A program made the position numbers and the translations under genes. This document shows positions 45,420 to 51,371 of a stretch of 64,000 nt of DNA, piece after piece. The notes beneath the pieces are model-generated. The model made no database searches. It worked only from the letters and a program-made list of their open reading frames with translations, and was not told where the DNA came from. Position 1 is the first letter of the stretch, and each line of letters starts with the position of its first letter. Location of the stretch: NCBI RefSeq assembly GCF_013122565.1, contig NZ_CP053258.1; one strand, given 5' to 3'. The stretch is from Escherichia coli. GTDB taxonomy: Bacteria; Pseudomonadota; Gammaproteobacteria; Enterobacterales; Enterobacteriaceae.

Positions 45420-45696
45420 ATGGCAGCCTCCATCTTTTTTATCCCTTCAGATAATGCCTTTGGCGTAGATTCTTTAAAAGATGCAATGAATATGATGATA
45501 TGGAATATGGCTTTCACCGTACATGGATGAACTGACGAAGAAAGTGGATATCCCGGCAGGCCTACGCGACCTGAACGTGAAAGAAGAAGATTTCGCGGTA
45601 CTGGCGACTAATGCCCTGAAAGATGCCTGTGGCTTTACTAACCCGATCCAGGCAACTCACGAAGAAATTGTGGCGATTTATCGCGCCGCAATGTAA
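45420..45696 (+). pseudogene. yiaY: Internally deleted remnant of iron-containing alcohol dehydrogenase yiaY
   Basis: ATG at 45420 encodes MAASIFFIPSDNAFGVDSLKDAMNMM (Fe-ADH N-terminus) then stops at 45528; a different frame encodes the Fe-ADH C-terminus ...[56 protein letters not shown] ending 45696; about 0.28 kb where an intact gene is about 1.15 kb. Confidence 0.7.
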
Positions 45697-45860
45697 TCAT
45701 CATTCCCACAACGGCTGGCAAATTGTCAGCCGCTTTTTCAACTATCTCTGTAATCCTTGCCCGTAAATTCGTGATAGCTGTCGTAAAGCTGTTACCGACT
45801 GGCGAAGATTTCGCCAGTCACGTCTACCCTTGTTATACCTCACACCGCAAGGAGACGATC

Positions 45861-47399
45861 ATGACCAATAATCCCCCTTCAGCACAGATTAAGCCCGGCG
45901 AGTATGGTTTCCCCCTCAAGTTAAAAGCTCGCTATGACAACTTTATTGGCGGCGAATGGGTAGCCCCTGCCGACGGCGAGTATTACCAGAATCTGACGCC
46001 GGTGACCGGGCAGCTGCTGTGCGAAGTGGCGTCTTCGGGCAAACGAGACATCGATCTGGCGCTGGATGCTGCGCACAAAGTGAAAGATAAATGGGCGCAC
46101 ACCTCGGTGCAGGATCGCGCGGCGATTCTGTTTAAGATTGCCGATCGAATGGAACAAAACCTTGAGCTGTTAGCGACGGCTGAAACCTGGGATAACGGCA
46201 AACCCATTCGCGAAACCAGTGCTGCCGACGTGCCGCTGGCGATTGACCATTTTCGCTATTTCGCCTCGTGTATTCGGGCGCAGGAAGGTGGGATCAGTGA
46301 AGTTGATAGCGAAACCGTGGCCTATCATTTCCATGAACCGTTAGGCGTGGTGGGGCAGATTATCCCGTGGAACTTCCCGCTGCTGATGGCGAGCTGGAAA
46401 ATGGCTCCCGCGCTGGCGGCGGGCAACTGTGTGGTGCTGAAACCCGCACGTCTTACCCCGCTTTCTGTACTGCTGCTAATGGAAATCGTCGGTGATTTAC
46501 TGCCGCCGGGCGTGGTGAACGTGGTCAACGGCGCAGGTGGGGAAATTGGCGAATATCTGGCGACCTCGAAACGCATCGCCAAAGTGGCGTTTACCGGCTC
46601 AACGGAAGTGGGCCAACAAATTATGCAATACGCCACGCAAAACATTATTCCGGTGACGCTGGAGCTGGGCGGCAAATCGCCAAATATCTTCTTTGCTGAC
46701 GTGATGGATGAAGAAGATGCCTTTTTCGATAAAGCGCTGGAAGGCTTTGCACTGTTTGCCTTTAACCAGGGCGAAGTTTGCACCTGTCCAAGCCGTGCTT
46801 TAGTGCAGGAATCTATCTACGAACGCTTTATGGAACGCGCCATCCGCCGTGTCGAAAGCATTCGTAGCGGTAACCCGCTCGACAGCGTGACGCAAATGGG
46901 CGCGCAGGTATCTCACGGGCAACTGGAAACCATCCTCAATTACATTGATATCGGCAAAAAAGAGGGCGCAGATGTGCTTACCGGCGGGCGGCGCAAGCTG
47001 CTGGAAGGCGAACTGAAAGATGGCTACTACCTCGAACCGACGATTTTGTTTGGTCAGAACAATATGCGCGTGTTCCAGGAGGAGATTTTTGGCCCGGTGC
47101 TGGCGGTGACCACCTTTAAAACGATGGATGAGGCGCTGGAGCTGGCGAACGACACGCAATATGGCCTGGGCGCGGGCGTCTGGAGCCGCAACGGTAATCT
47201 GGCCTATAAGATGGGGCGCGGCATTCAGGCCGGGCGCGTGTGGACCAACTGCTATCACGCTTACCCGGCACATGCTGCGTTTGGTGGCTACAAACAATCA
47301 GGTATCGGTCGCGAAACCCACAAGATGATGCTGGAGCATTACCAGCAAACCAAGTGCCTGCTGGTGAGCTACTCAGATAAACCGTTGGGGCTGTTCTGA
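45861..47399 (+). CDS. aldB: Aldehyde dehydrogenase B
   Basis: ORF from 45723 but recognised start [17 protein letters not shown] at 45861 (512 aa). Confidence 0.93.
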
Positions 47400-47430
47400 T
47401 ATAAGAAGCTGGTCGCATTGGGTATTCATT

Positions 47431-47513
47431 GCCTGATGCGACGCTTACGCGTCTTATCATGCCTACGGGAACCTGACCGTAGGCCGGATAAGGCGTACAC
47501 GCCGCATCCGGCA
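47431..47513. repeat. REP/BIME palindromic units after aldB
   Basis: GCCTGATGCGACGCTTACGCGTCTTATCATGCCTAC and GTAGGCCGGATAAGGCGTACACGCCGCATCCGGCA. Confidence 0.7.
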
Positions 47514-47941
47514 TAAACAAAGCGCACGTTGTTACAATTTACGTTTTAAACCTACGTGCGCAATAACCCAGACTACGCCAACAGAAGTGCGTTTCTGGGG
47601 CGTGTTTTGTCAGGAGTTTAATCTCGCGTTTCGATGGTGAGCGGGCGAACCAGGCCGTAAATCACCATTGGCGTTCCGAGGCCAATCAGCAATAAACGGT
47701 AGATAATTGAAGGTTTAATACGCTTAATCTGTATTGTGGATGTTTTACTGGAGTTATTCATTAGTTTGGCCAATAGTTCTATTATTTCAATATGATAAGT
47801 CTCAGTCTGTTGAAAATCCACGCAGTACACTTCAGAAAGTATATAAAAAACAATATGTCGTTATATAAATAAGGAAATTGCACTGCATCATGGCATTTCA
47901 TAATATGCGTTAATTGTTTTTTTATATTCTTTGAGGAAAAT

Positions 47942-48265
47942 ATGTTCCTGGACTATTTTGCACTGGGAGTGCTTATTTTTGTATTTCTGGTGATATTCTA
48001 TGGGATTATTATTTTACATGATATTCCCTACCTGATTGCTAAAAAACGTAATCATCCACATGCCGACGCCATTCATGTTGCTGGTTGGGTGAGTCTTTTT
48101 ACGCTGCATGTTATCTGGCCATTTTTGTGGATTTGGGCCACGCTTTACCGCCCGGAGCGGGGATGGGGAATGCAAAACCATGACTCCTCCGTTGTGCAAC
48201 TACAACAGCGTATTGCCGGGCTGGAGAAACAGCTCGCTGACATCAAATCCTCTTCTGCCGAGTAA
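47942..48265 (+). CDS. yiaW: DUF3302 small inner-membrane protein
   Basis: 107 aa ORF, N-terminal 80 aa nearly identical to YibI. Confidence 0.85.
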
Positions 48266-48270
48266 TACTT

Positions 48271-49407
48271 ATGGATTTACTGATTATTTTGACCTATGTG
48301 GCTTTCGCATGGGCAATGTTTAAGATCTTCAAAATTCCTGTAAATAAATGGACCATTCCCACCGCGGCCCTGGGTGGAATATTTATTGTCAGCGGTTTAA
48401 TTCTGTTAATGAACTATAACCATCCGTATACCTTTAAAGCGCAAAAAGCGGTTATTTCTATTCCTGTTGTCCCACAGGTGACAGGCGTGGTGATCGAAGT
48501 GACGGATAAGAAAAATACGCTGATTAAAAAAGGTGAGGTGCTATTTCGACTGGACCCGACGCGTTATCAGGCGCGGGTGGATCGGCTGATGGCGGATATC
48601 GTTACCGCAGAACATAAACAGCGGGCGTTGGGCGCAGAGTTAGATGAGATGGCGGCGAATACTCAGCAGGCAAAGGCCACGCGGGATAAATTCGCTAAAG
48701 AGTATCAGCGTTACGCACGCGGCAGCCAGGCGAAAGTAAACCCGTTTTCAGAACGCGATATTGATGTGGCGCGGCAAAATTATCTGGCGCAGGAAGCCTC
48801 CGTAAAGTCATCGGCGGCGGAACAAAAACAGATCCAGAGCCAGCTGGATAGCCTGGTGTTGGGTGAACATTCTCAAATCGCCAGCCTGAAAGCGCAGCTC
48901 GCGGAAGCAAAATATAACCTTGAGCAGACGATAGTGCGTGCGCCGAGCGATGGTTATGTGACCCAGGTGCTGATTCGTCCGGGTACCTATGCCGCGTCGC
49001 TGCCGCTACGTCCGGTGATGGTGTTTATACCCGATCAGAAACGACAAATTGTGGCGCAGTTCCGTCAGAACTCCTTGCTGCGACTGGCTCCTGGCGACGA
49101 TGCGGAAGTGGTGTTTAATGCTCTGCCAGGTAAGGTATTCAGCGGTAAGCTGGCAGCCATTAGTCCAGCCGTTCCCGGCGGAGCTTATCAGTCGACCGGC
49201 ACCTTACAGACGTTAAACACAGCGCCGGGTTCAGATGGCGTTATCGCGACCATTGAACTGGATGAGCATACTGATTTGAGCGCATTACCAGACGGTATTT
49301 ACGCCCAGGTGGCGGTCTACTCTGATCATTTCAGCCATGTCTCGGTGATGCGCAAAGTACTGTTACGCATGACCAGCTGGGTGCATTACCTTTATCTCGA
49401 TCATTAA
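48271..49407 (+). CDS. yiaV: HlyD-family periplasmic adaptor (membrane fusion) protein
   Basis: 378 aa ORF, paralog of YibH with near-identical C-terminal 40 aa. Confidence 0.85.
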
Positions 49408-50378
49408 TCTTCGCTTTCCGCCGCTTGTTCAGGCCGCAGTTGCTGCGACTGAGCAAGCTGGTGGCGAATTTCACGCAGCATTTCATCCAGCACATACTGG
49501 ACCCGCCAGGGCTGGTATTCCCGTTTACGGAAGATAGCCACCAGATCCAGCCACCATTCATACGGGTGCTGAAAGCAGGGCACCAGCGTGCCGTCTTGCA
49601 GGTCGCTCTGCACACTTTTGTCTGGCGCAAACACAATCCCCAGGTGATTTCGTGCCAGCTCCAGCGCAGATTGCGTGTTGTCGCAAACGTAATTTCCCTT
49701 CACGCGATAATCCCGCACATCTTTACTCCCGGCGACGTTGAAGCGCCAGATATTCGCGTCGTCGATCATCATCGAGTCGATCAAAATACAGGAGTGATGT
49801 TCGAGTTCGTCAGGACGGCTAATGGGATGTTTCGCAAGATAGCGCTGGCTGGCATAAGCGGTTACGGCATATTGTGTAATAAAACTGGCAACCAGCGATT
49901 CATCTTTTGGTGGGGCGTAGCTGATTAAAACATCACAATCATCGGGAAATTCGACGCCTTCATAAAAGGCATTACGCTCAAGATTGCAGGTTTTTAGCGA
50001 TAAGGTGATATCACCGATATCTTTAATTTTATCGATAACATGTTTGGATAAATAGGTAATTATGCCGGTTGGGGCGTAGATGGTGACCCGACCACGTTTC
50101 TCATGCTTATAATCTGCAATAAAATTATTAAGCTGCTCGTTTCTGTCCAGCATGTCGTTGATGTACGGTAATAGCGCGGTGCCAAAAGGTGTGAGCATCA
50201 GCTGCCGGGTGGTGCGGTCAAAGACTTTTAAACCCACTTTTGATTCAAAATCAGCAAGATATTTGCTGACGTTGGCCTGTGCGATGCCAAGTACAGTCGC
50301 GGCATGGCTGATATTTTCACTGGCAGCGATTACCGAGATAATTTTTAACTCCCGGTACTTAAGTTGTAATTTTGTCAT
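49404..50378 (-). CDS. yiaU: LysR-family transcriptional regulator
   Basis: 324 aa ORF, N-terminal HTH; convergent with yiaV, divergent from yiaT. Confidence 0.85.
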
Positions 50379-50500
50379 CGCAACAGCCCAATTATATATA
50401 ATTTTATATATTACTATATAAATATGAATCTTGCACCGGAGAAATTGTAAGCATTACTATGCCGACTCTTTTTATCTTATTTTAAAATGGAATACCGGAC

Positions 50501-51241
50501 ATGTTAATTAACCGCAATATTGTGGCGTTATTTGCGTTGCCTTTTATGGCAAGCGCAACTGCTTCTGAATTATCCATTGGTGCTGGTGCGGCTTATAATG
50601 AATCGCCTTATCGCGGTTATAATGAAAATACAAAGGCAATTCCGCTGATTAGTTATGAAGGTGATTCTTTTTATGTTCGTCAGACCACGTTAGGTTTTAT
50701 TCTGTCGCAAAGTGAAAAAAATGAACTTAGCCTGACCGCATCCTGGATGCCGCTGGAATTTGACCCTGCCGATAATGACGATTATGCCATGCAACAGCTT
50801 GATAAGCGTGATAGTACGGCTATGGCGGGGGTTGCCTGGTATCACCACGAGCGTTGGGGAACCGTGAAAGCCTCTGCGGCTGCGGACGTTCTGGATAACA
50901 GCAACGGCTGGGTGGGGGAGCTATCGGTTTTCCACAAAATGCAGATAGGTCACCTGTCGCTGACACCTGCGCTGGGCGTTATCTATTATGACGAGAATTT
51001 CAGTGACTATTACTATGGCATTTCAGAGAGTGAGTCCCGTCGTAGCGGTCTGGCAAGTTATTCCGCGCAGGATGCATGGGTGCCCTATGTCAGCCTGACG
51101 GCAAAATACCCGATAGGAGAGCACGTCGTATTGATGGCGAGCGCCGGATACAGCGAGCTGCCGGAAGAGATTACCGACAGCCCGATGATTGATCGTAATG
51201 AGAGTTTTACCTTTGTCACCGGCGTGAGCTGGCGTTTTTAA
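50501..51241 (+). CDS. yiaT: MipA/OmpV-family outer membrane protein
   Basis: 246 aa ORF with signal peptide and C-terminal aromatic residue (..SWRF). Confidence 0.85.
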   Translation: MLINRNIVALFALPFMASATASELSIGAGAAYNESPYRGYNENTKAIPLISYEGDSFYVRQTTLGFILSQSEKNELSLTASWMPLEFDPADNDDYAMQQLDKRDSTAMAGVAWYHHERWGTVKASAAADVLDNSNGWVGELSVFHKMQIGHLSLTPALGVIYYDENFSDYYYGISESESRRSGLASYSAQDAWVPYVSLTAKYPIGEHVVLMASAGYSELPEEITDSPMIDRNESFTFVTGVSWRF

Positions 51242-51261
51242 TTCACCGATGGATGTCGGTG

Positions 51262-51371
51262 CGGCTGGCCTACGCTCTCGCACCGACTCGTATGCCTGAT
51301 AAGACGTTTTAAGCGTCGCATTAGGCAATGTACTCCCTACGTTGGATGCGGCGCGAGCGCCTTATCCAACC
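51262..51371. repeat. REP-like palindromic units at the yiaT / GH127 junction
   Basis: GCCTGATAAGACGTTTTAAGCGTCGCATTAGGCA and GTTGGATGCGGCGCGAGCGCCTTATCCAAC units; the latter overlaps the GH127 3' end. Confidence 0.6.

Follow-up and report, generated by a model that had tools for sequence, protein, structure and literature searches.

yiaY and Its Described Counterparts

The yiaY gene of E. coli K-12 is an intact gene of 1152 bp located between selB and aldB, and its product of 383 aa (WP_000741518.1) belongs to the iron-type alcohol dehydrogenase family and is named L-threonine dehydrogenase by NCBI annotation. In Pfam, this protein matches PF00465 at residues 9–176 and PF25137 at residues 188–383. 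The gene is nearly universal in the species, being present at ≥80% in 5,349 of the 5,426 complete E. coli genomes. yiaY knock-outs are viable, and the reductase activity of the enzyme on acetaldehyde and isobutyraldehyde was very weak or absent (PMC3439341). YiaY has been treated as a secondary NAD-dependent threonine dehydrogenase (PMC10918650).

A defective form of yiaY is already known, since in two complete genomes, C9 (from a cow) and ET201 (from a frog), RefSeq flags the pseudogenes RG31_RS01435 and NMD30_RS00615, respectively, as 'L-threonine dehydrogenase, incomplete; missing N-terminus'. This annotation covers the 3′ arm of the remnant only and leaves the 5′ arm unrecognised, which is how annotation pipelines at present treat the locus. 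Yet another arrangement is found in E. coli 18KM2445 (NZ_CP151004), in which selB is followed by a frameshifted but otherwise full-length yiaY, an intact second yiaY, fic, and aldB; the first yiaY copy owes its inactivation to a single T added to a T-run. The selB-adjacent copy of this tandem haplotype is therefore also a pseudogene, but a full-length one, whereas the locus presented below retains only a 5′ arm and a 3′ arm.

Microhomology-mediated deletion and homology-facilitated illegitimate recombination are general mechanisms by which such joins arise, the latter being documented mainly in naturally transformable bacteria. The present locus resembles them in three respects: an imperfect direct repeat of 5–7 nt at the join, DNA of foreign type on only one of its sides, and a homologous flank opposite. 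Unlike those mechanisms, the present case is known from its sequence alone, with no donor or intermediate found.

The yiaY Remnant between selB and aldB

The analysed stretch of DNA, referred to as the window, comprises 64,000 nucleotides of contig NZ_CP053258.1 from the E. coli assembly GCF_013122565.1, and was compared with other genomes by blastn, semi-global pairwise and fragment-aware alignments. Its gene order is selA, selB, a yiaY-like stretch, aldB, yiaW, and yiaV. selA (42016–43407) lies 5′ of selB (43404–45248, plus strand), which is intact, encodes 614 aa and is annotated as selB in C9, ET201, and K-12; aldB (45861–47399, plus strand) is intact as well, encodes 512 aa and has a conserved upstream region. 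The selB-yiaY-aldB synteny is common to the window, K-12, C9, ET201, Nissle, and O157. In the window, yiaY is reduced to 277 bp (45420–45696). In blastn against K-12, positions 41273–45522 and 45528–51268 align with ~880 bp of K-12 sequence lying between them; what is absent corresponds to nt 118–992 of K-12 yiaY, that is 875 bp (1152 − 277).

The remnant consists of a 5′ arm (45420–45536, plus strand), corresponding to yiaY nt 1–117 in a divergent and decayed form, and a 3′ arm (45537–45696, plus strand), corresponding to K-12 yiaY nt 993–1152 in a K-12/O157-type form. The microhomology AACTGAC (45530–45536, plus strand) stands at the junction. Upstream, the selB-yiaY spacer (45249–45419, plus strand) represents a rare and deeply divergent haplotype; it contains a hairpin with perfect 16-nt arms and A-/T-runs on either side (45297–45330, strand not assigned), read as the selB terminator. 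Downstream, the intrinsic terminator of yiaY, a 9-bp stem followed by a T-run (45712–45741, plus strand), is retained and K-12-like. Both ends of the remnant are homologous to yiaY and its position between selB and aldB is conserved, which identifies it as the remnant of a yiaY ortholog; synteny and homology also extend to the spacer, the selB terminator hairpin, and the terminator of yiaY, which places the resemblance far outside what chance would give. The window thus shares with K-12 the chromosomal slot and homologous terminators, but lacks all of PF00465 and most of PF25137, and diverges by ~28% in its 5′ arm and promoter region.

The initial annotation of this DNA had placed at 45420–45696, between selB and aldB, the first ~26 and the last ~55 codons of an iron-type alcohol dehydrogenase gene, joined out of frame with a stop at 45528, with ~0.9 kb of a ~1.15-kb gene lost and with it the function. 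All of this agrees with the sequence, the list of open reading frames, and the comparison with K-12, whose yiaY is itself full-length at 1152 bp.

Loss of Function

Two open reading frames span the remnant. ORF1 (45420–45530, plus strand) encodes 36 aa and is YiaY-like in residues 1–26 only, matching YiaY 1–26 at 20 of 26 positions (BLASTP against K-12 YiaY, E = 4e-11); past codon 26 it is out of the YiaY frame and ends at the stop codon TGA at 45528–45530. ORF2 (45523–45696, plus strand), whose ATG was created at the junction, encodes 57 aa and contains the C-terminal 55 residues of YiaY, its residues 3–57 matching YiaY 329–383 at 54 of 55 positions (BLASTP against K-12 YiaY, E = 1e-36). In Pfam, ORF1 gives no match and ORF2 matches only positions 139–194 of the 194-position ADH_Fe_C model (PF25137), while the dinucleotide-binding domain PF00465, with its GGGSPHD motif, is matched by neither. 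YiaY residues 188–328 are missing, so the C-terminal helical domain with its metal-binding His/Asp is incomplete. With the NAD- and metal-binding core gone, including the GGGS NAD-binding motif, no enzyme can be produced, and the region is a dead, non-functional yiaY remnant, an ordinary pseudogene. The loss has little physiological weight, yiaY being dispensable; the main tdh-kbl route is intact in the window.

It is extremely improbable that the remnant is kept for a function of another kind, for instance as two translationally coupled micro-proteins encoded by ORF1 and ORF2 or as a regulatory transcript upstream of aldB. The ORF1 stop (45528–45530) does overlap the start region of ORF2 (ATG at 45523), and the core haplotype is nearly invariant among carriers, but a recent single origin accounts for this near-invariance. 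Moreover, carriers of type C have the replacements Q to L, A to V, and I to F at residues that are invariant in all intact alleles, which indicates that the C-terminal ORF is free of protein-level constraint. The Shine-Dalgarno region of the 5′ arm is damaged by a 1-nt loss and no Shine-Dalgarno sequence precedes ORF2. A search of the region against Rfam returned nothing near any gathering score, and in a promoter scan sites were no more numerous than in shuffled sequence. The sole notable plus-strand terminator in the scan was the known terminator of yiaY. Since this terminator and the upstream region of aldB are kept and K-12-like, the remnant would be expected to exert no polar or other effect on aldB.

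Two Arms of Different Ancestry

The initial annotation had described both ends of the remnant as clean, a reading that does not hold, since the 5′ arm is divergent and decayed and the 3′ arm pristine. selB agrees fully with K-12 over its final ~50 nt, and divergence sets in directly past its stop codon. From there to the junction (45249–45536), the spacer and left arm are ~70–73% identical to 5,369 of the 5,372 matching complete E. coli genomes, and only C9 and ET201 among the complete genomes of this species reach ≥99% identity. The 5′ arm alone is 72–74% identical to K-12, 79% to E. albertii, and 81% to the first copy of 18KM2445; the spacer is 66–69% identical to the E. coli and E. albertii spacers, and the two segments together show ~77% identity to the 18KM2445 haplotype. 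At the same locus E. coli alleles are 84–97% identical to each other and 78–80% to E. albertii, whereas the left piece of the window is only 66–77% identical to all of them and thus stands further off than E. coli and E. albertii do from each other. selB and aldB beside the remnant are 97–99% E. coli-like.

The right arm, by contrast, has 98% identity to K-12 and both K-12/O157-specific markers, G45547 and A45564; it differs from K-12 at three sites, every one of which has the same base in intact alleles. Private sites, defined as bases absent from ten intact Escherichia and Citrobacter alleles, number 11 of 102 in the left arm and 0 of 159 in the right arm (Fisher p = 2e-5). The decay of the left arm is also seen in a +2 indel at 45498–45502 with a compensating −2 indel near 45525–45530, and in the motif IPSVNVIG, found in ~35 genera from Escherichia to Vibrio and Pseudomonas, which in the window reads IPSDNAFG owing to the replacements V11D, V13A, and I14F. 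One arm decayed and the other a pristine K-12/O157 type, the two have different histories and different ancestry. A deletion remnant that appears 'clean' can thus carry two arms of different descent.

These observations bear on the plainest explanation of the locus, a deletion of ~875 bp within one ordinary yiaY, running from ACTGAC (nt 112–117) to ACTGGC (nt 987–992) and followed by neutral decay. It would account for a net length difference of exactly 875 bp, for the homology to yiaY at both ends, and for the short imperfect direct repeats that in K-12 lie on both sides of the missing segment. A simple intragenic deletion should, however, leave arms of similar divergence and decay, and here an arm 72–74% identical to K-12 adjoins one of 98%, with private sites confined to the former. 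The non-coding upstream spacer is equally divergent, and the divergence on the left goes beyond that between E. coli and E. albertii, yet the neighbouring genes are E. coli-like. As decay in place should have touched both arms alike, this explanation is considered highly improbable.

Relatives of the Left Arm

Among full-length relatives, the selB-adjacent yiaY copy of 18KM2445 comes closest to the left arm and spacer, with 77–83% identity (82.8% over the 5′ end; 77% with the spacer). An 11-nt shortening of the selB terminator hairpin is common to the window and the 18KM2445 haplotype only, and TTTTATACTCGTTCAGG and GATTCTTT, besides several derived blocks, are likewise common to this haplotype and the left part of the window. 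At 77–83% identity, the 18KM2445 copy is a cousin of the left arm and not its ancestor. The tandem yiaY pair (L097:3017-5678) recurs in seven further loci (L098–L104), where a frameshifted yiaY again stands ahead of an intact second yiaY and fic; in total the haplotype is represented by 18KM2445 and ~20 assembled contigs (P0033–P0036, P0148). Both tandem copies show 80–83% DNA identity to K-12, to E. albertii, and to each other. The repaired first copy of 18KM2445, used as a protein query, returned its own small family at 99–100% and then Citrobacter and Salmonella at ~85%, with no donor lineage among them. Because the tandem copies are only 80–85% identical to yiaY of any named species, they appear to come from an unsampled lineage.

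A full-length allele of the window's left type, single or in tandem, was found in no genome. A 46-aa query composed of the window N-terminus and K-12 residues retrieved short fragments and exact ORF1 (P0031), with no full-length protein of the window type; a degenerate DNA pattern encoding FFIPSDNAFGVDS had no match in the GTDB species representatives, and a 32-nt pattern common to the 5′ leaders of the window and 18KM2445 had none in the JGI metagenomes. In a scan of species representatives for YiaY orthologs, E. albertii was the sole Escherichia species among the matches listed (80 loci).

Two other sets of candidates were rejected as relatives of the left arm. A fragment of a paralog (fucO, eutG, or adhE) is excluded by the sequence upstream, where both the non-coding spacer and the selB terminator have their homologs in the selB-yiaY spacer. 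Three high-scoring E. coli YiaY proteins (P0032, P0037, P0038) turned out to be of the K-12 type and to contain in-frame duplications within the protein, of 54, 43, and 24 residues, respectively, the last consisting of repeats of ARLRDCA; these duplications show that the gene is prone to slippage-type rearrangements.

The Junction

In K-12 yiaY the left site ACTGAC occupies nt 112–117 and the right site ACTGGC nt 987–992, as located by alignment with the window. Intact alleles read (A/C/G)ACTGA(C/T)A at the left site, and every intact allele examined reads (A/G)(A/G)CTGGC, i.e., (A/G)(A/G)CTGGCGAAG, at the right one. The junction in the window reads GATGAACTGAC followed directly by GAAGAAAG (AACTGAC, then GAAG). 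A short direct repeat is thus present at both parental sites and one copy of it is left at the junction: there is microhomology at the join. The simplest reading is a crossover within the imperfect repeat AACTGAC/AACTGGC, with A45535 contributed by the left copy. The 6–8 nt directly to the left of ACTGAC (GGATGA) fit neither arm well, which makes the exact crossover ambiguous within 45522–45537, and a join at CAT (45522–45524) accompanied by four nearby substitutions is conceivable. Non-K-12 markers end with A45523 and K-12/O157-specific ones begin with G45547, 24 nt further on; the junction lies between the two, and the join itself thus appears to have linked two different alleles.

A link of this kind could have been made in one step by homology-facilitated illegitimate recombination, in which divergent Escherichia-like DNA anchored in selB would have been joined at AACTG in the resident yiaY, so that an incoming selB 3′ end, spacer, and dead yiaY 5′ end would have taken the place of the resident spacer and of nt 1–992 of the gene. 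The divergent DNA does lie on one side only of the junction and the switch in allele type coincides with 5–7 nt of microhomology. The divergent tract, moreover, begins at the selB stop codon, beside ~50 nt that are identical in all alleles and might have served as the anchor; being identical, they would retain no trace of it. Against this reading, selB shows no donor-type sequence ahead of its stop codon, where a donor with ~25% divergence would be expected to leave some, and the donor was found neither in the GTDB species representatives and JGI metagenomes nor among the YiaY ortholog matches listed. Such a one-step import is regarded as rather doubtful, although it is the chief alternative to the route preferred below.

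Two successive events are the other possibility: homologous recombination would first have produced a mosaic yiaY with a divergent, defective 5′ part, which would then have suffered the 875-bp deletion. E. coli yiaY alleles are indeed visibly mosaic, the identity between Nissle and K-12 ranging from 87% to 99% along the gene, and recombination tracts also end within the remnant itself. However, the earlier breakpoint must then fall inside the deleted segment, with no trace of either allele type left, the switch between alleles lies within 24 nt of the junction, and two events are needed where one suffices; this sequence of events is judged unlikely.

Carriers and Distribution

A 701-bp query across the remnant was matched whole in two of the 5,426 complete E. 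coli genomes, C9 and ET201, and the identical junction was found in 10 further assemblies. Of the 12 carriers, two are closed RefSeq genomes, three are GenBank drafts, six are SRA-derived assemblies, and one is a metagenome scaffold, and the junction is the same in all of them, apart from one private SNP in L008. The probability that the remnant is an artefact of assembly or sequencing, an idea with no point in its favour, is negligible in view of this agreement. The exact 36-aa ORF1 is encoded on at least 45 contigs (59 index blocks) among NCBI, ENA, and SRA-derived assemblies, and in one deposited genome it is named 'putative alcohol dehydrogenase' (SQQ07488.1).

The allele in C9 and ET201 is the same as that of the window, with an identical junction and one differing site in the left arm; seven SNPs separate it from the window, all but one within the last 50 nt, and the flanking genes are 2–5% different. 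Carriers of types W and C differ from position 45650 onward. Over 6.1 kb, one SRA-derived assembly (SRR11451224) shows 100% identity to the window. GCA_958336275, GCA_017593585, and GCA_958323235 are likewise carriers. Among the carriers the selB and aldB flanks differ from those of the window by 2–5%, whereas the ~500-bp core (about 45144–45649) differs by one SNP. A nearly invariant core within such flanks argues strongly for one ancestral event, and so for a single origin of the allele, with the flanks later reshuffled by recombination. While the initial annotation was right to set aside a sequencing artefact, the same junction having been found in 12 independent assemblies, its description of the loss as strain-specific has to be abandoned: in the survey of the 5,426 complete genomes the remnant was present in C9 and ET201, and the allele occurs on at least 45 contigs, in backgrounds that are 2–5% different. 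Being of single origin, the allele can serve as a clean marker of a rare haplotype in E. coli.

Proposed Origin of the Remnant

The remnant is very probably the dead product of one illegitimate join between the start of a divergent, decaying yiaY and the end of an ordinary yiaY of the K-12/O157 type. The left piece would be the first ~117 nt of a deeply divergent and already decaying yiaY copy adjoining selB, and the right piece the last 160 nt of the ordinary E. coli gene; a single illegitimate joining at the short imperfect repeat AACTGAC/AACTGGC would have eliminated the whole intervening segment, GGGS NAD-binding motif and metal-binding residues included.

As to the route, preference is tentatively given to the collapse, by a deletion of ~2.4 kb, of a tandem array selB – old yiaY′ – functional yiaY – (fic) – aldB, in which the first copy would have been long dispensable and decaying and the second functional. 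We infer both this tandem ancestor and the order of events from the surviving haplotypes. In 18KM2445 the distance equivalent to the ~2.4-kb deletion is 2,385 bp, and in the carrier L009 the identical remnant precedes fic, an arrangement expected from an ancestor with both the tandem pair and fic. The first copy of the tandem haplotype is the nearest relative of the left arm (77–83%). The second copy is not of the K-12 type, being 82% identical to K-12, in contrast to the 98% K-12-like right arm of the window. Recombination did enter the right arm at a later time, type W and type C carriers being different from 45650 onward; conversion of this arm is thus conceivable in principle, which counts against the proposed fusion of two alleles. 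After its single origin the allele has persisted in E. coli at very low frequency, with its flanks reshuffled by homologous recombination.

Viewed more broadly, the scar would combine a long-dead xenologous yiaY with an ordinary copy, the selB-aldB interval would be a small hot spot of yiaY/fic turnover, in which whole alleles, a second yiaY copy, and fic are gained, swapped, and collapsed, and the divergent lineages, namely the left arm of the window and both yiaY copies of 18KM2445, all only 80–85% identical to any named species, would derive from an unsampled Escherichia-like donor; this wider interpretation is given slightly less than an even chance. The locus in any case points to unusual allelic turnover in the selB-aldB interval.

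Other Features of the Locus and Its Surroundings

The gene fic, encoding a Fic-family protein of 431 aa, is present between yiaY and aldB in Nissle 1917, O157:H7, 18KM2445, and the carrier L009 (L009:3407-4702; L015:4020-5315; L016:4019-5314; L097:5808-6120), and is absent from the corresponding position in the window (45697–45860), in K-12, and in C9. The fic insertion in L009 begins right past ...CAACTATCTC, downstream of the yiaY terminator. In ET201 (L004:8439-9624), IS1 is located just downstream of aldB, beside a truncated yiaO; the stretch of the window from yiaW to yiaO is missing there and yiaK is frameshifted.

Past the stop codon of selB, at 45258–45300 of the window, lies the motif ATTAATT...AATTAATACAAAA, conserved from E. 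coli to Citrobacter and Pseudocitrobacter; in the window its second half has been destroyed (AGTAGATAAAAA). The motif is a possible site for the binding of a yiaY regulator. Within selB, the window and L009 differ at about 45 positions in 400 bp (44393–44780), and the window and K-12 at 22 positions per 250 bp (44250–44500), a patch that looks like a recombination mosaic within the gene.

Further upstream, the window (41239–42016) has the order mtlA - yibI - yibH - yibF - selA with no Rhs element, as does ET201, while in K-12 (L003:11688-14001) rhsA is located directly beside yibF; this stretch of the window is matched contiguously in only 1,578 of the 5,426 complete genomes. Finally, an ORF of 1299 aa on the minus strand (29302–33201) gives matches to trimeric autotransporter adhesins (Ata, EmaA, YadA-like), all below the family cut-offs, and probably encodes an adhesin of the UpaG/EhaG type.
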